DNA of 61,469 bases from Eubacteriales bacterium (GCA_045635885.1 JAZTWO010000041.1:1-61469), one strand, 5' to 3'. Numbered from the stretch's first letter, positions 1 through 60,985 are shown. Program-made: numbers and translations. Notes: generated by a model not told the origin, from the letters alone.

Positions 1-416
1 GGAGTTACAAAGTAAAGAATATCTTCTTTTTCGAGAAAAGGAAGCGCGAACCCCCAAAGCTCATAAAGATCGCTTCGGGGAACCCCGCACGCAAAAAGCT
101 TTTAATCGTATTATTGTAAACAAATTTTGCGCAATGCGCGTGACTCACTTCTTCGCGCTCGTCACAAATGTGTCTTTGTTTTCAAGAAAACAAAGAAACT
201 GCGCCTTGCTACTCTGCACATAGAGTTTTTGATAGCAAAATGGCAACGTTTTTAGTAGCAAATCACAGATTTTCGAATGTATGAGAAAATCGTTATGTTC
301 CAATTTATTGGAACGATTTGCGCAGATTAATTTAACTCACACGATTAAAAGTTTTGCGGAGCTTTTTCAAAAGCGACCTTTTTTATCTTTGTAACTATCC
401 GCTAAATCCCCATTTA
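1..416 (-). mobile_element. Structured non-coding repeat element, copy A (MITE/REPIN-like or ncRNA), truncated by the window start
   Basis: Reverse complement aligns with 15833-16231 over about 300 nt, including an identical 38-nt core (129-166 = rc of 16093-16130). Inverted ends AGTTACAAAG/CTTTGTAACT. No ORF. The mobile-element label is an inference. Confidence 0.7.
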
Positions 417-425
417 TTTTTCAAA

Positions 426-451
426 AAAGCCCCCACAGGAATGGGGGCTTT
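426..451 (-). terminator. Intrinsic terminator after glucokinase
   Basis: AAAGCCCCCA-caggaa-TGGGGGCTTT hairpin with a T-run on the minus strand. Confidence 0.8.
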
Positions 452-4886: not shown

Positions 4887-4963
4887 GGCGGGATAGCTCA
4901 GTTGGCTAGAGCAATCGGTTCATACCCGATAGGTCATGGGTTCAAGTCCAATTCCCGCTACCA
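4887..4963 (+). tRNA. tRNA-Met (CAT), elongator type
   Basis: Cloverleaf with GGCGGGA/TCCCGCT acceptor stem, ATCGG-TTCATAC-CCGAT anticodon arm, TTCAAGT T-loop and encoded CCA. Confidence 0.92.
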
Positions 4964-4967
4964 TTTC

Positions 4968-5042
4968 GGCCCGTTGGTCAAGCGGTTAAGACACGGCCCT
5001 TTCACGGCTGTAACATGGGTTCGATTCCCGTACGGGTCACCA
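4968..5042 (+). tRNA. tRNA-Glu (TTC)
   Basis: GGCCCGT/ACGGGTC acceptor stem, CTTTCAC anticodon loop, TTCGATT T-loop and encoded CCA. Confidence 0.95.
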
Positions 5043-13810: not shown

Positions 13811-15820
13811 ATGAAAAAACAGAATACTATGCCAAAAAGATATATAATCCTGCTCTCTGCATTTGCGCTTGTATGCTTTGTTTTTTCGGCTCGTCTTATC
13901 AATTTGCAATTCAACAAAAGTCAAACCGAAGACTTGCGTGCAAAAAGCGAATATACAACCGAAACCCAAGTTATTCAAGCATTAAGAGGTAATATTTGTG
14001 ACAGAAACGGTAAGGTGCTTGTTACAACCTCCTATGCCTATGACATTGTTTTGGACTATAACAAAATGTCCGACAATTTTATTGAGTTCAATAATTCCAT
14101 TTTGGCAGTTCTTGATGCGCTTGACGAAACTCAAAACAACGAATACCGTGCTTCAGACCTATTCCCTTTTGTTGGGGAATATCCAAATTATTCTTATTCC
14201 GAAGAGGCATTGACAAAAGGTAGTGCGACATACAACGCCCTTAACAAAATGCTGAAGGAATTGGAGCTTGAAAACATTAGCGCAAAGGAATTGACCGAAT
14301 ATTTCGTTAAACGTTGGAAGTTTAATCGACTTGACGAAAATTCAAATCCGATTTTTTCTGATGATGACATTGGCAGACTTATTCGCATTAGATATGATAT
14401 GTTAAGATGTCAATTCAGTTCAACCAATCCATACACAGTGGCAAAGGGTGTTGATATTTCGTTTTTGACTTATATCAAGGAATTATCCATTGTTGGTGTT
14501 GCAGATAGAATAAGCTCAAAAAGAACCTATATGTACCCGGGATATGCCTCACACATTCTTGGCAGAGTTGGTTCTATAACTGCAGAAACCTGGGATTATT
14601 ACAAGTCCCTTGGCTATGGCATCAACGACATTGTTGGCATTGATGGATGTGAAAATGAATTTGAAGAATATTTGCGTGGCAAGGATGGCGTTCTTACCAT
14701 CACCCGAAACGGCGAGGGCGAGATCGTTAAAGAAGAAATCACCGTTGCTCCCATTGCGGGCAAGGACGTTTGGCTTACAATTGACATTGACGTTCAAATT
14801 GCCGCAGAGGATGCGCTTGCAAGCTATATGAAAACCTATGAAAAAAATTCAGGGGCAAGCATTGCCATTGACCCCAACACCGGTGACGTGCTTGCGATTG
14901 CTTCGTATCCCACATACAATCTTTCAACATTTTCGGCAGATTATAATTCACTTGCATCAAACCAAGATCTGCCACTTTTGAACAGAGCGCTTAACGCAAC
15001 TTATGCGCCCGGCTCTACATACAAGGTGGCAGTTGCATTGGCGGCTTTGCAAGAGGGCGCTATCACCAATAGCACTTGCTTTACTTGTAATCACGGTTAC
15101 AAAAATCATAATTTGAGTATTGGTTGCAACAACCACAATTCATATCACACAAGCAATTTGAATGTGATTGAGGCGTTGACCTACTCTTGCAACGCATTCT
15201 TTATTGAGGCGGGGCTTGACAATCTTGATATTGACACAATGACCGAATATTGCAAGGCATTGGGACTTGGTCAAAGCTCCGGCATTGAGCTTAGTGAAAA
15301 AATAGGTCAAATTGCTCATCCCGATAATACTTCAGATTGGCTTTTGTACGAAGAAGCATCTTCATATATCGGTCAGTCAATTCACAAGTACACCCCCTTG
15401 CAGGTTACTTCATATATCGCAACTGTTGCAAACGGCGGAACTCGTTATGCGGCTCACTTGCTTCATTCGGTTAGAACATTTTCAGGCGAGGTTGTTTATG
15501 AATACACCCCCACGGTGTTAAGCACACTCACAATTTCAGCTAACAATCTCAACACAATAAAGCTTGGTATGAAGAGTATGGTTGACAATTCATCAACAGT
15601 TGCTTTAAATATGTACACAAAATATAAAATCGACGTTACCGTGTGTGGAAAGTCAGGTACTGCGCAGATTGGTAACAACAAGCAAAATTGTTGGTTCACT
15701 GCATTTGCACCAATGGAAAATCCCAAAATTGCCGTGACCTCGATTATCGAGAACGGAAGCACGGGCGCTTCGGTTTCGGATATTGATGCGGCAGTAATTG
15801 CGGCTTATTTGAATAGATAA
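13811..15820 (+). CDS. mrdA: Class B penicillin-binding protein (PBP2/MrdA-like)
   Basis: TM anchor, RGNICDRNG, APGSTYK (SxxK), SCN and KSGTAQ. Confidence 0.85.
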   Translation: MKKQNTMPKRYIILLSAFALVCFVFSARLINLQFNKSQTEDLRAKSEYTTETQVIQALRGNICDRNGKVLVTTSYAYDIVLDYNKMSDNFIEFNNSILAVLDALDETQNNEYRASDLFPFVGEYPNYSYSEEALTKGSATYNALNKMLKELELENISAKELTEYFVKRWKFNRLDENSNPIFSDDDIGRLIRIRYDMLRCQFSSTNPYTVAKGVDISFLTYIKELSIVGVADRISSKRTYMYPGYASHILGRVGSITAETWDYYKSLGYGINDIVGIDGCENEFEEYLRGKDGVLTITRNGEGEIVKEEITVAPIAGKDVWLTIDIDVQIAAEDALASYMKTYEKNSGASIAIDPNTGDVLAIASYPTYNLSTFSADYNSLASNQDLPLLNRALNATYAPGSTYKVAVALAALQEGAITNSTCFTCNHGYKNHNLSIGCNNHNSYHTSNLNVIEALTYSCNAFFIEAGLDNLDIDTMTEYCKALGLGQSSGIELSEKIGQIAHPDNTSDWLLYEEASSYIGQSIHKYTPLQVTSYIATVANGGTRYAAHLLHSVRTFSGEVVYEYTPTVLSTLTISANNLNTIKLGMKSMVDNSSTVALNMYTKYKIDVTVCGKSGTAQIGNNKQNCWFTAFAPMENPKIAVTSIIENGSTGASVSDIDAAVIAAYLNR

Positions 15821-15832
15821 TAAAACAAATGA

Positions 15833-16231
15833 AAAATTGGGATTTATCGAGTAGTTACAAAGATAAAAAGGTCGCTTTTGAAAAAGCTCCGCAAAACTTT
15901 TAAACGTGGGAGTTAAATTAATCTGCGCAAATTGTGTCAATAAATTGACACATAACGTTTTTCTCGCCATTTTAACAGGCGGCTCGAAAAACTGTAATTT
16001 GCTAATACAAACTATAGACATTTTGCTATCAAAACGGCTACGTGCAGAGTAGCAAGGCGCGGTTTTTGTTGCATTTATGCAATAAAAACGAGTGTGACGA
16101 GCGCGAAGAAGTGAGTCACGCGCATTGCGCGAAATTTGTTTACCATAACACGATTAAAAGTTTTTTGCGAGCTTTTTTTCAAAAAAGCGAAAATTTTTAT
16201 CTTTGTAACTTTTCCTATAAATCAAAATTTG
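15833..16231 (+). mobile_element. Structured non-coding repeat element, copy B (complete)
   Basis: About 400 nt with ~95-nt imperfect terminal inverted arms and AAAT-N4-ATTT boxes at both ends; homologous to rc(1-416). Confidence 0.75.
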
Positions 16232-16252
16232 ATACTAGTAAATAATAACACA

Positions 16253-16287
16253 AAAAAGGCGCAATTTCAAGTGAATTGCGCCTTTTT
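16253..16287. terminator. Bidirectional terminator
   Basis: AAAAAGGCGCAATTT-caagt-GAATTGCGCCTTTTT. Confidence 0.8.
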
Positions 16288-16293
16288 ATTATT

Positions 16294-17112
16294 TTATTTT
16301 CTTTTCAATTTGCCAATCACGCGTCCAACGCAGCTAACGTCTTCAAAATCCTTAAGAAGAATATCACCATACATTGAATTTATAGAGATGAGACGGTCGC
16401 CACCGTAAATTTTGAAATATCCGTTTCCGTCAAGAATGAATATACCAAGCTCACCGACCTCAACATAGTCGGAATTAGCCACCAAAAGAACGTCGCCATC
16501 ACGATATTTTGGCTCCATACTGTTACCGCTAATACGAAGAGCAAAATCCGCCTCACGAGTTCTTTCGTTATCGGGAATCATAATGTCATCACTTGCAGGC
16601 GACTCAACAAACACACCAACACCTGCAGAAACAGGCATATCAAAAAGAGCGATGGCACGTTTTCCAAGTCCACGGTTTTGAGCAAGCTCACGAGCAGAAA
16701 TTTTTGTGCTTGGAGCAGCAATGGGAGAAAGAATTTTTGTTCCCTTTTCTTTAACCTCAACAGAATGATCTTGATATGGCGCTCTTGCAACTCTTTCTTT
16801 TTCTTTGTCAAGAACGAGTGTAACAAGCTCCTTACCATGTGAATCGAGCGCACGATAATTTTCAATAAGGTGCATTTCGCCACGGTCAAGAGTGAAATTA
16901 TTGGTGTTTTCAGGCACACCGTTTACAACGTATTCAAGCGAAGTGTCAAGCGCATCACAAATAGCCACGATATTTGAAAGCTTGGGACTATCACTAATTC
17001 CCGCAAGAATTTTAGAAAGTGTTCCAAGGGGAATTCCCGTCATTTCAGAGAGCATGTCGTTAGTTATTTTCTTTTCGCTTTTAAGAAGCTTTATTCTATC
17101 AATATAATCCAT
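16294..17112 (-). CDS. XRE-HTH plus peptidase S24 repressor (cI/LexA-like); start revised from 17136
   Basis: N-terminal XRE HTH, VSAG cleavage site, ISGNSMEP catalytic Ser, YFK catalytic Lys; RBS AAAGGAG; promoter TTTACA-17-TATAAT at 17155-17183. Confidence 0.88.
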   Translation of the reverse strand: MDYIDRIKLLKSEKKITNDMLSEMTGIPLGTLSKILAGISDSPKLSNIVAICDALDTSLEYVVNGVPENTNNFTLDRGEMHLIENYRALDSHGKELVTLVLDKEKERVARAPYQDHSVEVKEKGTKILSPIAAPSTKISARELAQNRGLGKRAIALFDMPVSAGVGVFVESPASDDIMIPDNERTREADFALRISGNSMEPKYRDGDVLLVANSDYVEVGELGIFILDGNGYFKIYGGDRLISINSMYGDILLKDFEDVSCVGRVIGKLKRK

Positions 17113-17138
17113 AAGTGTTCTCCTTTCACTTATCAAAT

Positions 17139-25920: not shown

Positions 25921-28900
25921 TCATTCGGGTTTGTAGCCCCAAATGTAATTATAAGTTGTATTGCACCAATTTTCATCCCATCCATATGGTTTTGAGGATG
26001 CTTCACAATAAATTGTGATTGATGAAGAATAGTAGAATACGCTATAACCCATAGTTTCTACAGATTCAGGAATAACTATGCTTGTAAGTGCTGTACAATA
26101 AGCAAATGCATAATTTCCAATACTTGTTACAGATTCGGGGATATTTATACTTGTAAGTACTTTACAACCATAGAATGCATAATCACCAATGTTTGTAACA
26201 GAGTTGCCAATTGTTACGCTTTTGAGCGCAGTGCAATTATAGAATGTAGAAGCTCCAATACTCGTCACGGAATTGGGGATTTCTATGCTTGTAAGTGCTT
26301 TACAACCATAAAATGCTCTATTACTTATATTCGTTACATAGTTTCCTATTGTTACACTTGTAAGTTTTGAGCAACCTTCGAATGCATTATAATCAATATT
26401 TGATACGGAGTCAGGTATTATTATACTTGTAAGTGATTTGCAATTATAGAATGCATTAACGCCTATACTGGTTACGGAGTCTCCTATTGTTACGCTTTTA
26501 AGTGATGAACAACCAGAGAATGTAGAATTATCAATAATTTCTACTAAATCGGGTATTTCTATACTTGTAAGTGAGGTGCATCCATAGAATGCAGAATTTC
26601 CAATACTTATCACAGAGTCAGGAATTTTTACGCTAGTAAGTGAGGTACAACCGTTGAAAGCACGAACACCGATATTTGTCACTTTTTTTCCGTTTATTGT
26701 AGATGGTATAGTTACAGTATTAGTAACTCCGGTAAACTTATCAATAGAAATCTCATTGTTTTTTTGATGCCATACTAGGCCATCAGATGTTATCCCCGAA
26801 GTTTGAACACCCCACACAACAAGTAAACTGGACTCATTCCATGAAGAACCCCATCCGTCAGGCTTTGATTCAGCTTCACAGTAAATTATCCTCGAAAGAT
26901 TACTAGAAAATACACTGCCCATACTAGTTACAGAAGCGGGAATTGTTATGTTTGTGAGCAAATTGCAATTATAGAATGCATAATTACCTATATGTGTTAC
27001 GGAATTTGGAATTGTTATACTTGTGAGTGATTTGCAATTATAGAATGCATAATTACCTATACTTGTTACGGTATTGGGAATTTCTACGTTTTGAACCAAT
27101 TCATTATTAAAATACAAATTAGTAGCTTTAATCATAGGATTAGAATAAAAATCTGTAAAATTAATGGCAACCCAATCTTCAACAGTTCCCATAAAGTATA
27201 CATCTTGGAGATTTGTACAATTATAAAATGCATTAGAACCGATACTTGTCACGGATCCGGGGATTGTTATGTTTGTGAGTGCTCTACAATTATAGAATGT
27301 AGAACCACCTATACTATTTAAGTTATTAAGTATTGTTACGCTCTTGAGTGAAGTACAATTATAGAATGTGGAACCTCTAAGATTATTTACATAGGGAATT
27401 GTTATACTTGCAAGTGATTTGCAATTGTAGAAGGCATAACCCCATATATCAGTCAACTGACTATTTTCACCAAATGTTACGCTTGTAAGCGACTCACATT
27501 GATAGAATGCATAACCATCAATACTTGTAATAGAATCGGGGATTTCTATAGTTGTAAGCGAAATACAGTTATAGAATGCAGAATCACCAATACTTGTAAC
27601 AGAGTCGGGGATTTCTATAGTTGTAAGCGAAACGCAGTCATAGAATGCTCTTTCAGGAATACTTGTTAACTGACTATTTTGAGCAAATGTTATGCTACTC
27701 AATTTAGTGCAATAATAGAATGCTCCATAACCAATACTCGTCACAGAGTTGCCGATTGTTACGCTTGTAAGTGAATTGCATTTTTCAAATGCTCCAGCAC
27801 CAATGCTCGTTACAGAGTTGGGAATTGTGATGCTTGTTAGTGGTGTGTAAGCAAAAGCTAAATCACCAATACTCTTCACAGAATTAGGAATACTTATGTT
27901 TGTAAGTGGGCAACCACTAAATGCTTCTTTACCAATGGTTATCACCGATTTAGGAATTGTAATACTTGTAAGATAATCACAAATGTAAAATGCACGATTA
28001 TTAATAATTCTTGTGCCACTATTAATTTTGCAACTTGTTATTGCGCCATCTTTAGCACGCATTAATACAAGATATGGATTAGTATTATTTCCAAGATAGA
28101 AGGCATTATCATACTGATTATATTTCAAAGATGTACAACTTCCAAATACATTCTCACCAATACTTGTTAAGGAGTCGGGAATACTTATATTTATAAGTGA
28201 TGTGCAACCAAGGAATGCAGAACCACCAATACTCGTTACAGAGTTACCTATAGTTACACTTGTTAGCGATGTACACTGTTCAAATGCTGAATCTGCAATG
28301 ATCGTTACAGAATCAGGAATTTCTATGCTTGTAAGTAAAGTGCAATTTCTAAATGCTTTAGCACCAATACTTGTCACAGAGTTAGGAATTTCTATGTTTG
28401 TGAGTGAAGCGCAATATTGAAATGCAGAATCACCAATACTCGTCACAGAGTTAGGAATTTCTATGATTTTAAGTGATGTGCAAAAGCTAAATGCAGCCGC
28501 ATCAATACTCGTTACGGTGTCGGGAATTGTTATACTTGTAATCGAATTGCAATTATGGAATGCAGCATAACCAATACTCGTTACAGGTAATTCATTATAA
28601 GTATTAGGGATAATTATTTTGTTACTTGTGCAAACACCTTTGCCAACTACAGAATAGCTAACTCCATCAGGATTCAGAGAAAATTCAAGTCCTTCCGAAC
28701 CGATTGGATAAATTGATAAAACAGAAATAACTTGTCCGCAAGTCATACATTGTGTATGCTTGCTTCCATATTCAGTATTTGTAGGTTCTCGATCAATTAT
28801 CCAATCGCTTTCAACATGCCCAAGTGCTGAACCACTTGTAATTCTACAAGTACTACATGTCTTGGGTGCAGTACAAGTAGCATCAACCCATGTATGACCA

Positions 28901-32016: not shown

Positions 32017-32020
32017 ATTC

Positions 32021-32426
32021 GTAATCGTGTCTATAAGCCGGGTTCTGTCTTAAACGGTCATCTATCTTCGCTTGTTGTCACCAACAAGCTTCGAGGGGTA
32101 CCCCTCGTGCCACCCTGCAGATATGTGTCGGGCAAACATCTGCGCACGGTGTTGCTTCAAGTAGGGTTTACAGCGGATCTATGTTACCATAGAAACGGGT
32201 GAGCTCTTACCTCGCCTTTCCATCCTTACCCCTAATAAAATTGCTAACGCAATTTGATTAGTAACAAACTGCAAGCAGTTTATTAAAAAGGGCGGTTTAT
32301 TTCTGTTGCACTTTCCCGGCAGTCGCCTGCGGCTGACGTTATCAGCTACTCTGCCCTGTGAAGCCCGGACTTTCCTCGCAATAACACCTTTCGGCAACAT
32401 ATTGCGCGACCGTTCGGCACGGTTAC
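32021..32426 (-). ncRNA. rnpB: RNase P RNA, type A-like
   Basis: GAGGAAAGTCCGGGC and ACAGAACCCGGCTTA (P4), GGAAAGTGCAACAGAAA, P13 loop GGTAAGAG, P14, P18; P1 GTAACCGTGCC/GACACGATTAC. Confidence 0.95.
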
Positions 32427-33142: not shown

Positions 33143-33300
33143 AAAATAAACTAACCACACGAAAAAGTCCGTGTGGTTGTAATTTTTAGAGAGTTTTCTC
33201 CCAAGTACTACCTACGACGGCATTATCCGTATCAGGTTAAGGGTTCAGCATCTCTATTGAGCCATCTCAGCAATAAGCACCCCTGACTTCTTATGTGGTT
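33143..33300 (-). promoter_or_regulatory. TPP riboswitch (aptamer about 33203-33289) with terminator platform
   Basis: AGGGGTGC..GCTGAGA..ACCCTTAACCTGATACGGATAATGCCGTCGTAGG; terminator AACCACACG/CGTGTGGTT at 33153-78; promoter TTGACA-17-TAAACT at 33309-37. Confidence 0.93.
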
Positions 33301-33360
33301 GTGAGTATAGTTTAGCACAAATTTTATGTATTGTCAAGAGGAAATTGAATTTAACTATGA

Positions 33361-33386
33361 GGCGGGCGATTCGTGAATCGCCCGTC
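33361..33386. repeat. REP-like palindrome, copy 1
   Basis: GGGCGATTC-GT-GAATCGCCC; exact reverse complement of the core at 40554-40573. Confidence 0.8.
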
Positions 33387-33491
33387 ACCTATAAATCAAA
33401 ATTTGAAACACTAACAATACTTTTAAAAACTATTGCAAATATTTAAAAACTGTGATAGAATAAAAATAATAAAAACACAAAGGAGAAAATT

Positions 33492-36254
33492 ATGAAAAAG
33501 TTTTTAACACTCACACTCGTTGTGTTAACTTTGGTTTGTTTGCTCGCATCGTGCGGTGGGCAGGAACAAAAAACAACCGCAGCCACGACAACACAACCAA
33601 TTAAACCCGAACCGCCCGTTCATACGCACAATTATGATGAATGGAAGACGGTTAAAAATCCCACCTGCACGGAAAATGGCGAAGAGGTGAGATATTGCTC
33701 TTGCGGTGAAAAGCAGAGTGAGGTTGTTGTTGCATTAGGACACAATCCTGCCGAAGCGGTTGAAGAAAATCGCGTTGAAGCGACCTGTTATGCAGAGGGT
33801 GGATACGATATGGTTATTTATTGCTCTGAATGTAAGGCAGAGCTTGAAAGAGCAACGTTTGCGTTAAGCAAGGTTGAGCATACGCCTGCAAATGCGGTTG
33901 AGGAAAACCGAGTAAATCCCACACACGAGAAGGACGGTAGCTATCAAATGGTAGTTTATTGCTCAGTAGCGGAGTGCCACGCAGAGCTTGAAAGAACAAC
34001 GCATATTATTGATATGCTTGTTCATCACCCCGGTAATGTGGTTGTTGAAAATCAGGTGACTGCAACTTGTACGAAAAACGGAAGCTATGACGAGGTTGTT
34101 TATTGCCTTGACGACGATTGCGGACACAAGGAACTTTCAAGAAAAACAATTTCCGTTCCTATGGTTGCTCATACACCTGCCGACGCAGTTGAAGAAAATA
34201 GAGTTGAAGCTACTTGCACAACAAAGGGTAGCTACGACGAGGTGGTTTACTGCGCAAACTGTGGCACGCAGATGAGTAGAACTAAAAAGGTTATCGACAT
34301 GGTGTCACACACCGAAAGCGATTGGATTGTCGACGTTGAAGCGACAACCACAACTGTGGGTTCGAAGCATACGGAGTGTACGGTTTGCGGTGCAAGAATT
34401 AAGACGGAAACAATAGATAAATTGCCAAGACCTGCATCCGAAGGACTTGCATTTACTCTCAATAGTAACTTTGCAAGTTATTCTGTAACAGGAATTGGCA
34501 CTTGTACGGATACGGATATTGTTATTCCAAGTACTTATAACGGCTTGCATGTAACAAGTATTGGTAATTATGCATTCCAATATTGCTTATCGCTTACAAG
34601 CATAGAAATCCCCGACTCCGTGACGAGTATTGGTAAGTATGCATTCGAAGGTTGCTCATCGCTGACAAGTGTAACAATTGGAAACTCCGTGACGAGTATT
34701 GGTGATCGTGCATTCGAAGATTGCACATCGCTCACAAGCGTAACAATCGGTGACTCCGTGACGAGTATTGGTGATTGGGCATTCGCTTATTGCTCATCAC
34801 TTGCAAGCATAACAATCCCCGACTCCGTGACGAGTATTGGTGATCGTGCATTCCAATCTTGCAGATCGCTCGCAAGCGTAACAATCGGCGATTCCGTGAC
34901 AAGTATTGGTTATGCTGCATTTGCTGGTTGCTTATCGCTTACAAGCATAACAATCCCCGACTCCGTGACGAGTATTAGTAAGTCTGCATTTAATGATTGC
35001 TATTCACTTATTGAAGTTATCAACAAATCATCATTGAATATAGTTGCAGGTTCATATGATTATGGATATGTTGGCTATTATGCAAAGTATATTATAACCG
35101 ATGAATCTCAGTCTGCACTTAAAACCGTAGGTAATTTTATTTTCTGTGATGATGGAACAGATATTTATCTTGTTAAATATTTGGGTAGTGATGCTGAAAT
35201 AACTCTTCCCGAATATGATGGCGGAAAAGAGTATGGTGTTTGGAATTATGCATTCTACGATAATGATATTATTACAAGCATAACAATCCCCGATTCAGTA
35301 ACAAGCATTGGTAATTATGCATTCGAATATTGCACATCACTCACAAGCATAACAATCCCCGACTCCGTGACGAGTATTGGTTATGTTGCATTCAAAGATT
35401 GCACATCTCTTACAAGCGTAGTAATACCCGACTCTGTGACGAGTATTGCTGATGCTACATTCCGTAATTGCTATTCACTTACAAGCATAACAATCCCCGA
35501 TTCCGTGACGAGTATTGGTAGTGAGGCGTTCTATGAGTGCAAATCGCTCGCAATCGTAATAATCGGCGATTCCGTGACGAGTATTGGTAGTTCTGCATTT
35601 GATAGTTGCTTATCGCTCGCAAGTGTAACAATCGGCAGTTCCGTTACAAGTATTGGAGATGGTGCATTTTCTCCTGGTTTCTCACTCATCGAAGTAATAA
35701 ACAAATCATCGTTGAATATCACCGCAGGTTCCTATGATAATGGAGGAATTGGATATTATGCAAAGCATATTATAACCGATGAATCACAATCAGCAATTAA
35801 AACTGTTGGAGATTATATTTTCTATGATGACGGAACTGAAATTTATTTGGTAAAATACATTGGCAATGATACAGAAATAACTCTTCCTGAATATGACGGT
35901 GGAAAAAAATATGCGATTTGGAAATATGCATTTTTCTATAATGAGAAAATAACAAGCGTAACAATTCCCAATTCTGTGACAAGTATTGGTAGTGAGGCAT
36001 TTGGTATTTGCTTATTACTTACAACTATAATAATTGATAATTCTGTGACGAGTATTGGTGATTGGGCATTCAATGGTTGCACATCACTTGCAAGCATAGT
36101 AATCCCCAATTCAGTAACAAGTATTGGTGATAGTGCATTCTCTGGTTGCGATTCGCTCACAATTTACTGCGAAGCAACTTCAAGGCCGAGCGGATGGCAT
36201 TATTATTGGAATTCTTACAACCTCCCTGTAGTTTGGGGCTACAAACCCGAATAA
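33492..36254 (+). CDS. 920-aa BspA/TpLRR surface lipoprotein with Cys/His repeats
   Basis: Lipobox LASC; HxPxxAVEENRVxATC..YDxVVYC repeats; 23-aa LRRs; WGYKPE cap; RBS AAGGAG. Confidence 0.9.
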   Translation: MKKFLTLTLVVLTLVCLLASCGGQEQKTTAATTTQPIKPEPPVHTHNYDEWKTVKNPTCTENGEEVRYCSCGEKQSEVVVALGHNPAEAVEENRVEATCYAEGGYDMVIYCSECKAELERATFALSKVEHTPANAVEENRVNPTHEKDGSYQMVVYCSVAECHAELERTTHIIDMLVHHPGNVVVENQVTATCTKNGSYDEVVYCLDDDCGHKELSRKTISVPMVAHTPADAVEENRVEATCTTKGSYDEVVYCANCGTQMSRTKKVIDMVSHTESDWIVDVEATTTTVGSKHTECTVCGARIKTETIDKLPRPASEGLAFTLNSNFASYSVTGIGTCTDTDIVIPSTYNGLHVTSIGNYAFQYCLSLTSIEIPDSVTSIGKYAFEGCSSLTSVTIGNSVTSIGDRAFEDCTSLTSVTIGDSVTSIGDWAFAYCSSLASITIPDSVTSIGDRAFQSCRSLASVTIGDSVTSIGYAAFAGCLSLTSITIPDSVTSISKSAFNDCYSLIEVINKSSLNIVAGSYDYGYVGYYAKYIITDESQSALKTVGNFIFCDDGTDIYLVKYLGSDAEITLPEYDGGKEYGVWNYAFYDNDIITSITIPDSVTSIGNYAFEYCTSLTSITIPDSVTSIGYVAFKDCTSLTSVVIPDSVTSIADATFRNCYSLTSITIPDSVTSIGSEAFYECKSLAIVIIGDSVTSIGSSAFDSCLSLASVTIGSSVTSIGDGAFSPGFSLIEVINKSSLNITAGSYDNGGIGYYAKHIITDESQSAIKTVGDYIFYDDGTEIYLVKYIGNDTEITLPEYDGGKKYAIWKYAFFYNEKITSVTIPNSVTSIGSEAFGICLLLTTIIIDNSVTSIGDWAFNGCTSLASIVIPNSVTSIGDSAFSGCDSLTIYCEATSRPSGWHYYWNSYNLPVVWGYKPE

Positions 36255-36261
36255 ACATACT

Positions 36262-55757: not shown

Positions 55758-55787
55758 ATTTTCACCTGCCTTTTTGATTTTGTTAAT

Positions 55788-57695
55788 TTATTCGCCTGTA
55801 TAGCCCCAAACAACAGGACAATCATAACTGTTCCACCAGGAATTCCACCCGCTTGGCTTAGAAGATGCTTCACAGTAAATTGTAAGGGATGTACAATCTT
55901 GGAATACCCCAGAATCAATACTTGTTACTGAATCAGGGATTACTATGCTTGCAAGAGATGTGCAATCACGGAATGCCCAAACACCAATACTTGTTACTGA
56001 ATCGGGTATTACTACACTTGTAAGTGATGTGCAATAAGCAAATGCATAACCACCAATACTTGTTACTGAATCGGGGATTACTACACTTGTAAGGGATGTG
56101 CAATTATAGAATGCATGACTACCAATACTTGTTACTGAATCGGGGATTGTAAATAATTTTGCTTCTTTTCCTATCGCATATTGTATTAATATTGTTCCAT
56201 TTTTGCTATAAAGATTTCCATCAATAGATTTATAATGCTGATTGTTTGTGTCAACCTCTATGCTTGTAAGGGATGTGCAATTATCAAATGCATATTTACC
56301 AATGCTTGTTACTGAATCGCCTATCTCTACACTTGTAAGGGCTGAGCAATATTCGAATGCATATTCACCAATACTTGTTACTGAATCGGGAATTACTATG
56401 CTTGTAAGGGATGTGCAATCAGAGAATGCAGAATTACCAATACTTGTTACTGAATCGGGTATTACTACACTTGTAAGAGATGCGCAATCACGGAATGTAT
56501 CATCACCAATACTTGTTACTGAATCTGGTATTACTACACTTGTAAGCGATGCGCAACCACGGAATGCATCATCACCAATACTTGTTACTGAATCAGGTAT
56601 TACTACGCTTGTAAGGGATGTGCAAAACCCGAATGCACCAGCACCAATACTTGTTACTGAATCGGGTATTCCTATGCTTGCAAGGGATGTACAATTACGG
56701 AATACAGAATTACCAATACTTGTTATTGAATCGGGTATCACTATGCTTGCAAGGGATGTGCAATTATCGAATGCATTATTACCAATGCTTGTTACTGAAT
56801 TTGGTATTTCTATGCTTGTAAGTGATGTGCAATTATAGAATGCAGAATTACCAATACTTGTTACCGAATCGCCTATCTCTACACTTGTAAGGGATTTGCA
56901 CTTATAGAATGTGTACATACCAATACTTGTTATTGAATCGGGTATCACTATGCTTGCAAGGGATGTGCAATTATCGAATGCATTATTACCAATGCTTGTT
57001 ACTGAATTTGGTATCTCTATGCTTTTTAGAGATGTACAATAACGGAATGCAAGCTCACCAATACTTGTTACTGAATCGGGGATTACTATGCTTGTAAGAG
57101 ATGAGCAGAACGCGAATGTAGCATTACCAATACTTGTTACTGAATCACCTATCTCTACGCTTGTAAGTGATTCGCAATTTTTGAATGCCCAATTACCAAT
57201 CCTTGTTACTGAATCACCTATCTCTACACTTACAAGTGATTTGCAACCATAGAATGCAGAATTACCAATACTTGTTACCGAATCGCCTATCTCTACACTT
57301 GTAAGAAATCGGCAATTATAAAATGCATTATCACCAACACTTGTTACCGAATCTCCTATCACTACACTTGTAAGAAATCGGCAATCATAAAATGCATTAT
57401 CACCAATGCTTGTTACTGAATTGGGGATTAGTATACTTGTAAGTGATTTGCATTTTTTGAATGCATTACGACGAATACTCGTCACAGGTAACTCGTTATA
57501 AGTTGATGGAATAATGATATCCGTATCTGTGCAAGTTCCAATGCCTGTTACAGAGTAACTTTGACCGTCTGCATTTAATGAAAATTCAAGACTTTCCAAT
57601 ACTGCGTTATGTTCAATATTTTCATTACCACCGCAAGAAGTTATCGTAAGTGCTAAAGCAATTGAAATTAATATAAATAATAAAACTTTTTTCAT
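55788..57695 (-). CDS. 635-aa BspA/TpLRR surface lipoprotein
   Basis: Lipobox ITSC; about 20 tandem 23-aa LRRs; TIYCEASSKPSGW...VVWGYTGE cap. Confidence 0.92.
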   Translation of the reverse strand: MKKVLLFILISIALALTITSCGGNENIEHNAVLESLEFSLNADGQSYSVTGIGTCTDTDIIIPSTYNELPVTSIRRNAFKKCKSLTSILIPNSVTSIGDNAFYDCRFLTSVVIGDSVTSVGDNAFYNCRFLTSVEIGDSVTSIGNSAFYGCKSLVSVEIGDSVTRIGNWAFKNCESLTSVEIGDSVTSIGNATFAFCSSLTSIVIPDSVTSIGELAFRYCTSLKSIEIPNSVTSIGNNAFDNCTSLASIVIPDSITSIGMYTFYKCKSLTSVEIGDSVTSIGNSAFYNCTSLTSIEIPNSVTSIGNNAFDNCTSLASIVIPDSITSIGNSVFRNCTSLASIGIPDSVTSIGAGAFGFCTSLTSVVIPDSVTSIGDDAFRGCASLTSVVIPDSVTSIGDDTFRDCASLTSVVIPDSVTSIGNSAFSDCTSLTSIVIPDSVTSIGEYAFEYCSALTSVEIGDSVTSIGKYAFDNCTSLTSIEVDTNNQHYKSIDGNLYSKNGTILIQYAIGKEAKLFTIPDSVTSIGSHAFYNCTSLTSVVIPDSVTSIGGYAFAYCTSLTSVVIPDSVTSIGVWAFRDCTSLASIVIPDSVTSIDSGVFQDCTSLTIYCEASSKPSGWNSWWNSYDCPVVWGYTGE

Positions 57696-57802: not shown

Positions 57803-57989
57803 GTTAGTGCAAACATCACGGCTATGTAACTTTAAATATCAAAACCCTTTTGTCGCTTTTTCTTTTGAGAAAGTAGCCCCAAAAGAAAAAGCTTTGCAAA
57901 AAGAAAACGGGCATTTTGTGCTCAAGCCGCTTGGCTTCCGCTTTTGAAAAAGCGGAGCAAAACAACAGCTTTGGTTAATGTAAACATCA
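57803..57989. repeat. Multi-hairpin non-coding element flanked by 16-bp imperfect direct repeats
   Basis: GTTAGTGCAAACATCA and GTTAATGTAAACATCA; hairpins at 57855-92 and 57937-56; shares CGCTTTTGAAAAAGC-N3-GCAAAAC with the 400-nt element. Confidence 0.65.
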
Positions 57990-60732: not shown

Positions 60733-60985
60733 AATAAAAAGCCCTCACGTCAAATGCATAAGCATAAGGACGAGAGCGCTCGTGATACCACCTTATTTCG
60801 CCATTTTCTCACAAAAATGACCTCATCAGCTAACTAATAGCCCACGCTTTAACGGGCGAACCCGACTTTCCTTTCGGAAGCAACTCAAGGATAGCTTCAC
60901 GCTCCGCACCCAACTGCCTCGCACCAACCGACAGCTCTCTGAACAAGCTCAAGAACGCTACTTATTCCTATCAACGTTTTTCATA
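60733..60985 (-). promoter_or_regulatory. T-box leader with Ala (GCU) specifier
   Basis: Stem I with AGTA, AGAGA and GGTG motifs; GAA-GCT-ATCC specifier (60893-95); T-box AAGGTGGTATCACG (60781-94); terminator; promoter TTGACA-17-TATTAT at 60993-61021. Confidence 0.93.

Follow-up and report, generated by a model that had tools for sequence, protein, structure and literature searches.

The 61,469-nt sequence analysed here (contig C41 of an Eubacteriales genome of 1.72 Mb, in 83 contigs and 97% complete; GCA_045635885.1, JAZTWO010000041.1:1-61469), referred to in its full length as the window, carries at positions 15834-16231 a segment of about 400 nt, here called copy B, of which a diverged, inverted counterpart (copy A) lies at the very start of the contig. 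The stems of the two copies remain paired while their sequences change, and the question raised by this locus is what kind of sequence behaves in this way and how it came to be repeated. Our analysis indicates that copy B is probably a member of a very abundant, genus-specific family of small, non-coding, non-autonomous mobile DNA elements. We infer that such elements are mobilised in trans by a single-strand mechanism, which would also be the reason for the constraint on their structure.

At first, the two copies of the window were compared. B (15821-16260, plus strand) and A (1-440, minus strand) align with 81% mean column identity, which confirmed the inverted, diverged pair described in the first-pass annotation of this DNA. 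The three compensated stems listed there are present as claimed: GTGTCAAT/ATTGACAC of B corresponds to GTTCCAAT/ATTGGAAC of A, GCAAATT/AATTTGC to GCAAATC/GATTTGC, and GTTTTTC/GAAAAAC to GATTTTC/GAAAATC. The largely rewritten hairpin at 16062-89 was seen as well, and the 38-nt block starting at 16093 is identical in both copies. Since the indels separating A and B (1, 2, 12 and 46 nt) are not all multiples of three, the copies were recognised as non-coding, and no gene was found between the paired ends in any element of up to 714 nt. The borders were defined with contigs of four public gut-metagenome runs, in which the element is joined to many different flanks and the divergence sets in exactly at 15834 and 16232, i.e., within 1 nt of the ends proposed at the outset; contigs of these runs end at 15805 and restart at 16246.

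The complete copy B (15834-16231, plus strand; defined by the alignment with A, BLAST, the public contigs and a fold z score of -10.98) consists of a G-end, a left arm, the modules M1 and M2, a right arm and a T-end. The G-type terminus AAATTGGGATTTATCG, found with a terminal-motif scan, occupies 15834-15849 (plus strand) and is followed by the left-arm hairpin GCTTTT GA AAAAGC (15874-15887, plus strand), which was read from the copies: its centre is conserved and its outer stem variable, other copies having GTTCTTTTTGGAAAAAGAAC, GGGGGATTTTGAAAAATCCCCC or CCACTTTTTGAAAAAAGTGG at this place. Module M1 (15921-16005, plus strand; 87.1 bits with covariance model R1) forms a three-way junction of a closing stem P1, a hairpin P2 and a hairpin P3 with a conserved loop. 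Module M2 (15999-16136, plus strand; delimited in an alignment of 40 copies) is built of stem P8, enclosing the variable hairpin P5 and hairpin P6; the latter (16094-16119, plus strand) has, according to pair counts, a covarying 5-bp stem and a conserved 16-nt loop, GAGCGCGAAGAAGTGA. The right arm (16148-16229, minus strand; nhmmer arm profile, E = 2.6e-12) is an inverted copy of the left one, and the T-type terminus (AAATTTTGATTTATAG on the minus strand), recognised in the same terminal-motif scan, lies together with a flanking trinucleotide GAT (GAA in most copies) at 16215-16233 on the minus strand. Copy A (1-415, minus strand; from the alignment) shares this architecture, with a 46-nt G+C-rich insert in its T-side arm; its T-end is lost at the contig start, its G-end is at 400-415, and its M1 module (255-327, minus strand) reaches 90.7 bits with model R1. 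A G+C-rich insert of about 46 nt within the arm hairpin was observed in either arm (window positions 1-60, as well as contigs C38, C51, C11, C1 and C49); it starts with GCGGGGTTCCCCGAAGC, ends with GGGGGTTCGCGC and behaves as a nested sub-module.

The statement that the element is "present twice" proved correct for the window only. With copy B as a query, blastn returned 127 segments, merged into 71 places of its own 1.72 Mb genome, which also provided the copy-number count that had been proposed as a check. Two-round nhmmer searches of the same genome with profiles of the individual modules gave 83 places for the arm, 44 for M1 and 21 for M2, 69 for a second core type and 69 for a module combining a promoter-like sequence with a G+C palindrome. 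About half of the copies of each module class are situated within 400 nt of a contig end, a zone comprising 3.9% of the genome; the assembly is therefore broken at these repeats and the true copy numbers probably exceed the assembled counts. In the four public runs, the depth of the arm, taken over all organisms of the samples together, was about 10-200 times that of the flanks.

A scan for paired termini was conducted on the own genome and on 130 loci of public genomes fetched through the T-end. The outermost 16 nt are either AAATTGGGATTTATCG (the G-end) or AAATTTTGATTTATCG (the T-end). Within the own genome there are 28 adjacent inverted pairs of termini, spaced 99-697 nt, and all 27 pairs that could be typed, complete elements of 99-508 nt, combine one G-end with one T-end, G/G or T/T pairs never being found. 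The same holds for the loci of other genomes, where the partner of the T-end was never another T-end (36 of 36 pairs of 68-714 nt, in a list read by eye). The inverted terminal repeats comprise the 16-nt termini and the arms, each arm being about 80 nt long; the inversion is clear over the outermost 16-26 nt as well as in the arms, and fixed positions distinguish one end from the other. The T-end directly borders on the trinucleotide TTC (GAA on the other strand) in 22 of the 27 elements, the G-end flank being variable. No target-site duplication was detected, as direct repeats of 2-9 nt (offsets of up to 4 nt either way) in 27 elements did not exceed a mismatched-pair control.

Inside each terminus there is typically an arm containing a small hairpin with a conserved centre, TTTTGAAAAA, and an outer stem that differs among copies. 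The cargo between the arms is variable: it may be missing, or consist of M1 and M2 (as in B), of M1 and a different core, of a promoter-like module, or of G+C-rich palindromes. Members composed of arms only (e.g., C42:1940-2040 and C30:2063-2161) are about 100 nt long and represent an inverted doublet of a hairpin-forming repeat. M1 lies mostly beside the G-end and in a fixed orientation, both in the own genome and in five other species, with two exceptional copies. The promoter-like module, linked to the second core type, was noted at about 30 places of the genome (e.g., C26:3212, C26:3356, C4:9141 and C19:9429); it carries an extended -10 sequence (TGTGTATAAT) followed downstream by a palindrome starting with GTAGGG, is often located 140-400 nt upstream of ordinary genes and may supply promoters.

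Within the genomes searched, the family is confined to one genus. With blastn, 21 of the 22 other genomes of this genus were positive, as against none of 18 genomes sampled from other genera of the same family and order, and the covariance model of M1 had no match in 150 further genomes drawn from 30 families of the order. Public contigs with the T-end are labelled mostly as metagenome-assembled genomes of Clostridia or Eubacteriales, from animal guts. Between species, M1 shows 100% identity over 57 nt with copies from two other species, compared with 79-87% identity for the right flank of B, which is mainly the neighbouring gene.

Orthologous sites were then compared, which also supplied the empty-site check proposed initially. 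Beside the gene at 16294-17136 (locus 1), the site is occupied in six genomes and empty in six others. Between the same termini, the occupied genomes have a type-A element, an unrelated core, or nothing but the arms (an element of about 130 nt). The empty sites lack GAA at the expected place, and the trinucleotide TTC/GAA may belong to the element rather than to the target. At locus 2, the same flanks enclose a type-A element in the own genome (G000), a different core in G002, a G+C-rich core in G001 and no element in G019. These patterns fit an insertion followed by an exchange of the interior between copies, and they fit equally independent insertions into one preferred site. High copy number, sharp borders, two differentiated ends, restriction to the genus and the occupied/empty site together support the suggestion, made from the window alone, of a non-autonomous mobile element.

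The same pattern, with termini kept and interiors swapped, also fits another explanation, namely that the termini are sites of a site-specific recombinase and that the elements are inverton- or shufflon-like cassettes rather than transposons. This explanation was prompted by the exact 19-nt T-end pattern, which was found in specificity-subunit-like genes beside a tyrosine recombinase in the viral contig L311 (700-5800); most of the 23 viral contigs matching the pattern share this layout of repeated motifs. The core of the copies in C19 and C65 is oriented oppositely relative to the G- and T-ends, and some modules of the family contain a strong promoter-like sequence. The viral clusters (L302-L324) look like phase-variable type I restriction shufflons, but they lack the arm and the core of the family, and the 19-mer match may therefore be due to chance; for most of these viral contigs chance identity is the probable explanation, L310 and L316 being those that contain a real G/T-ended element of about 263 nt. 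Moreover, a close relative of the L311 recombinase (68% identity) is present in only one of 23 genomes of the genus, whereas the single match in the own genome (31% identity) is to what is presumably a housekeeping Xer-type enzyme, found in nearly every genome, including the element-free G008. Strand-changing joints were not reported at B in the four runs, for which short contigs only are available. Cassettes of this type thus appear highly improbable. Phage and plasmid collections gave no blastn match to the element, and the M1 loop pattern had no match in viral contigs.

As regards the transposon interpretation, each element has two differentiated inverted termini, a G-end AAATTGGGATTTATCG and a T-end (TTC plus AAATTTTGATTTATCG), usually followed by arms, and between these a variable cargo of structured modules. 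An enzyme supplied in trans would recognise both ends and insert the element without duplicating the target, the copies would afterwards exchange interior modules by recombination, and the stems would be retained since the element must fold as a single strand. A single-strand route (HUH/Y1-type, REPIN- or IS200/IS605-like) is preferred over a DDE-type cut-and-paste reaction because the target is not duplicated, a conserved trinucleotide occurs on one side only, hairpins lie near the ends and the element folds as a single strand. The folding strand may be either DNA during mobilisation or a read-through RNA.

The fold itself was evaluated against 100 dinucleotide-preserving shuffles. The plus strand of 15834-16231 folds with -140.2 kcal/mol (z = -10.98) into the long arm-arm hairpin with a multibranched top that had been predicted, and the minus strand with -127 kcal/mol (z = -9.26). 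The plus strand gives the better fold in 37 of 41 copies, but in the case of copy B shuffles of the same composition already account for about 9 of the 13 kcal/mol between the strands, which weakens the earlier argument from plus-strand G-T pairs. The ratio of G-T to A-C pairs (29 vs 7 in M2, and 5 vs 18 in M1, the latter mostly from a mis-registered variant) was not relied upon.

RNAalifold applied to a plain MAFFT alignment recovered 23 pairs only, and hand-drawn helices were tested because MAFFT mis-aligns hairpins of variable length. For M1, the hand-drawn three-way junction was examined in 55 distinct copies (1462 cells), with partners slid by 1-3 columns as controls; 90.7% of the cells hold standard pairs, compared with 32-46% after sliding, 14 pairs are changed on both sides, and none of 500 shuffles reached the same covariation score. 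The corresponding values for M2 (40 copies) are 91.9% and 28-52%, with 11 pairs changed on both sides, all these pair counts being descriptive, not probabilities, for copies related by descent. In P1, C-G occurs in 29 copies, U-A in 25 and U-G in one. P2 is paired in 99.2% of cells, with three pair types at several positions and five of seven pairs changed on both sides. In P6 99.5% of cells are paired, and four of the five pairs are changed on both sides (GTGAC/GTCAC, GTGCC/GGCAC, GCGCC/GGCGC and other stems) around the conserved 16-nt loop, while in P8, which encloses P5 and P6, all four pairs are so changed. The hand-drawn helices P4 (76% paired) and P7 (no covariation) were not supported in the 40 M2 copies. 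The covariation extends beyond local palindromes and includes long-range helices that enclose other hairpins. Stems kept paired by compensating changes support selection on a single-stranded fold, as first proposed.

Paired changes may also arise without selection, when quasi-palindromes in repeated DNA are corrected to perfect ones, time and again, by intrastrand template switching in the course of replication or repair, and the elements would then be decaying junk with self-maintaining hairpins. Many of the hairpins are indeed perfect DNA palindromes centred on two bases (e.g., GTTCCAAT AA ATTGGAAC, a 13+2+13 variant of P2, and the arm hairpins), both strands fold far above chance, and the assembled copies are old and diverged. 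However, covariation is also found in helices whose strands lie 35-75 nt apart (P1 13-90, the P3 base 49-86 and 50-85, and P8), and P3 keeps a tandem T.C/C.T mismatch, unpaired in 51 of 55 copies, which such correction should have erased. The unpaired loops are, in addition, conserved across species. Self-maintaining hairpins are therefore a distinctly unlikely source of the paired changes.

In another explanation, the M1-M2 core (about 220 nt) would be a functional multicopy structured RNA, merely spread by the ends or recruited by the host, with stems kept for the function of the RNA (e.g., protein binding through the conserved loops). Its nested, multibranched fold with compensatory changes in the long-range helices P1 and P8, the conservation of the P6 and P3 loop sequences in changing stems and the 57 nt of M1 invariant across species are all in agreement with it, and so are a terminator-like G+C hairpin with a following T-rich run at the end of M2 on the plus strand and the better folding of that strand. 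The strand advantage is, however, mostly compositional, no promoter-like site is present on the plus strand of 15700-16400, no RNA run was found to contain the region 15300-16800, and many family members, 99-297 nt long, do without both M1 and M2. The first-pass annotation had noticed that the strand with the G-T pairs has the sense of the upstream gene, but this is not general: of the 29 copies that could be placed, 15 have the orientation of the upstream gene and 14 the opposite one, and co-transcription is therefore not systematic (for the downstream gene the counts are 12 and 21; some loci overlap and the counts are approximate). A search of the whole window against Rfam 15 at the gathering score gave no match to the element; four type-A copies were negative even when E values up to 1 were allowed, as were eight loci with other cores at a limit of E = 0.1, in line with the initial impression that no known RNA family is involved. 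Considering all this, a functional RNA at the heart of the family seems unlikely.

A related possibility is that the core, with its 220 nt or so, acts in trans with a mobilising enzyme, either as a structured RNA or as a scaffold of single-stranded DNA. It would then correspond to the guide/scaffold RNAs of IS200/IS605 and IS110, but be uncoupled from any protein gene and dispersed in dozens of copies over a small genome. We assign this a very low probability; if true, the near-perfect conservation of loops across species would reflect a partnership with the enzyme, and the family would be a transposase-less population sustained by one chromosomal gene.

Returning to mobile elements moved in trans, we searched for the mobiliser. 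The first-pass annotation had anticipated copies flanking a RAYT, TnpA, recombinase or reverse transcriptase gene, and no such link was found. Of the transposase families searched in the own genome, Y1_Tnp is represented only by a broken remnant, the TnpB zinc ribbon by a match inside a 1670-aa frame, and rve is absent; contig C70 of this genome (1668 bp) carries a DDE_Tnp_1 frame of 324 aa (82 bits) without family termini, probably a collapsed insertion sequence. In the genus, IS110 occurs in eight of 23 genomes, DDE_Tnp_1 in seven and rve in nine. A search for Y2_Tnp was negative in all 23 genomes, but its control was equally empty and the result is uninformative. A single canonical IS200-type TnpA was found in the genus (G001), at a locus without family termini. 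A 2.2-kb candidate for an autonomous element (L085) was rejected, as it turned out to be a short element beside ordinary genes.

Of the 23 genomes of the genus, 16 have weak or better Y1_Tnp-like matches; the element-free G008 has none, but neither do six element-bearing genomes. The RAYT-like Y1 gene among them scores 70-72 bits against NF047646 (cut-off, 80), and intact homologues of 170-210 aa exist in most other genomes of the genus. It is the only candidate mobiliser with a suggestive distribution, and a weak one. In the own genome this gene is broken (C71:10230-10580; locus L059, about 1360-1710): it is interrupted early by an in-frame stop, and a G+C-rich palindrome stands in place of its HUH region.

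This state of the gene is one of several points which weigh against mobile elements moved in trans by a single-strand mechanism. The RAYT-like gene is not flanked by the elements: termini lie within 1.5 kb in two of 13 loci, on one side only, with the element 450-800 nt upstream (an arm-profile match was obtained near one of the 13). The gene is missing from G010, the genome with the most candidate copies, and in one relative its neighbours are G+C-rich palindromes, apparently a more canonical partner. The IS110, DDE_Tnp_1 and rve loci of the genus are devoid of arms, cores and termini, and neither the own genome nor the fetched loci yielded an open reading frame flanked by the elements, although, as the assemblies are fragmented at repeats, a copy could be missed. 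Recent movement was not apparent, the assembled full copies of the own genome being at most 90.6% alike (median 77%). Where occupied orthologous sites share their flanks, a single old insertion with later replacement of the interior would explain this as well as repeated insertion, and no contig of the four DNA runs bridges an empty site at B, although these contigs stop at the element edges and are uninformative either way. A replication-strand bias, expected for some single-strand transposons, was not seen (14:13 by GC skew, a noisy test). Finally, the tested structures were drawn from the same related sequences, and the shuffle and slide controls overstate the significance of the covariation.

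Several known systems resemble the family in part. The bcr1 repeat of the Bacillus cereus group is described in a review as a mobile, transcribed element of about 155 bp with 5-bp direct repeats at its flanks, in which compensatory changes keep a cruciform-like fold (PMC3184786). The two have in common that they are group-specific intergenic repeats of a Gram-positive lineage, with non-conserved positions and a fold kept by compensatory changes, whereas the present elements are 99-697 nt long, have a modular cargo and gave no target duplication. The same review presents BOX of Streptococcus pneumoniae as a MITE-like (MITE, miniature inverted-repeat transposable element), non-autonomous element of 67-637 nt assembled from few module types and with a predicted RNA structure (PMC3184786). 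The modular, MITE-like, non-autonomous organisation and the very variable length are shared; in the family presented here, however, it is long inverted arms, ending in differentiated termini, that enclose the modules.

With REPINs (hairpin-forming doublets of repetitive extragenic palindromes, REPs) and their RAYT transposases (REP-associated tyrosine transposases), the family shares the inverted doublet of a hairpin-bearing unit, the long hairpin, the high copy number, the lack of target duplication and the existence of a RAYT-like gene in the genus. Unlike in REPIN/RAYT systems, this gene is unflanked by family termini and broken in the own genome. Classical REPs are short G+C-rich sequences, whereas the units found here are A+T-rich, reach about 95 nt and enclose a large structured cargo between the halves. 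Derivatives of IS200/IS605 (PATE-like, palindrome-associated transposable elements) resemble the family in the absence of target duplication, the subterminal hairpins, the trinucleotide TTC at one end only and the conserved single-strand fold. The ends of IS200/IS605 are not inverted repeats of each other, with different left and right hairpins on one strand, whereas those of the present family are inverted repeats. Like the Correia/nemis MITEs, the elements are small, non-coding, multicopy, intergenic sequences with terminal inverted repeats, a long-hairpin fold and, in some modules, promoter-like sequences; they differ in having no target-site duplication and no parent insertion sequence with the same ends that we could find. 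Because the target duplication looked for in a MITE was not found, nor the RAYT gene flanked by copies looked for in REPINs, we file the family as a MITE-like variant (MITE/BOX/bcr1-like), a member of neither the MITE nor the REPIN class. Our literature search, which did not extend to subscription journals and supplements, found nothing on such a family in these organisms.

The repeats occupy a visible share of a 1.7 Mb genome and will be met by anyone assembling or comparing genomes of this ruminant-gut genus of uncultured Clostridia. They mark places of gene-order difference between species: in relatives in which both neighbours of B were matched, the upstream one (a penicillin-binding-protein-like gene) and the downstream one lie on different contigs (in G020, on two long contigs, with matches at about 83 kb and 43 kb), so the gene order differs at the element. 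The family also constitutes a natural data set on how a multi-domain fold is kept by compensatory change within selfish-looking DNA; with its differentiated ends, and with neither a target duplication nor a visible transposase, it is well suited to the search for an unrecognised mobilisation route or a structured RNA cargo. Even if it is only an old MITE-like family, its annotation is useful, and a caution against calling open reading frames of the elements genes.

Additional members and neighbouring features were distinguished in the window. A third, minimal member of about 65 nt (33342-33406, plus strand) has a single G+C-rich palindrome between a T-end, to which GAA is adjoined, and a degenerate terminus of G-like type; the T-end match is at 33389-33404, and the G-like end was recognised by reading only and is unscored. 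A fragment resembling the arm hairpin (57936-57963, plus strand; direct repeat D11, with a weak arm-profile match, E = 3.9e-4) is situated upstream of a leucine-rich-repeat gene. Just outside copy B, in the flanking locus, there is a bidirectional terminator-like hairpin (16253-16287), which is kept in species without the element. Matches at the Rfam gathering score correspond to RNase P class A (32018-32425), a T-box leader (60763-60983), a thiamine pyrophosphate (TPP) riboswitch (33191-33294) and two tRNAs (4887-5039). The repeat scan of the window is dominated by long arrays of 69-nt (23-codon) repeats in large open frames on both strands (26000-28600, 34440-36260 and 55780-57600), which probably encode leucine-rich-repeat surface proteins.

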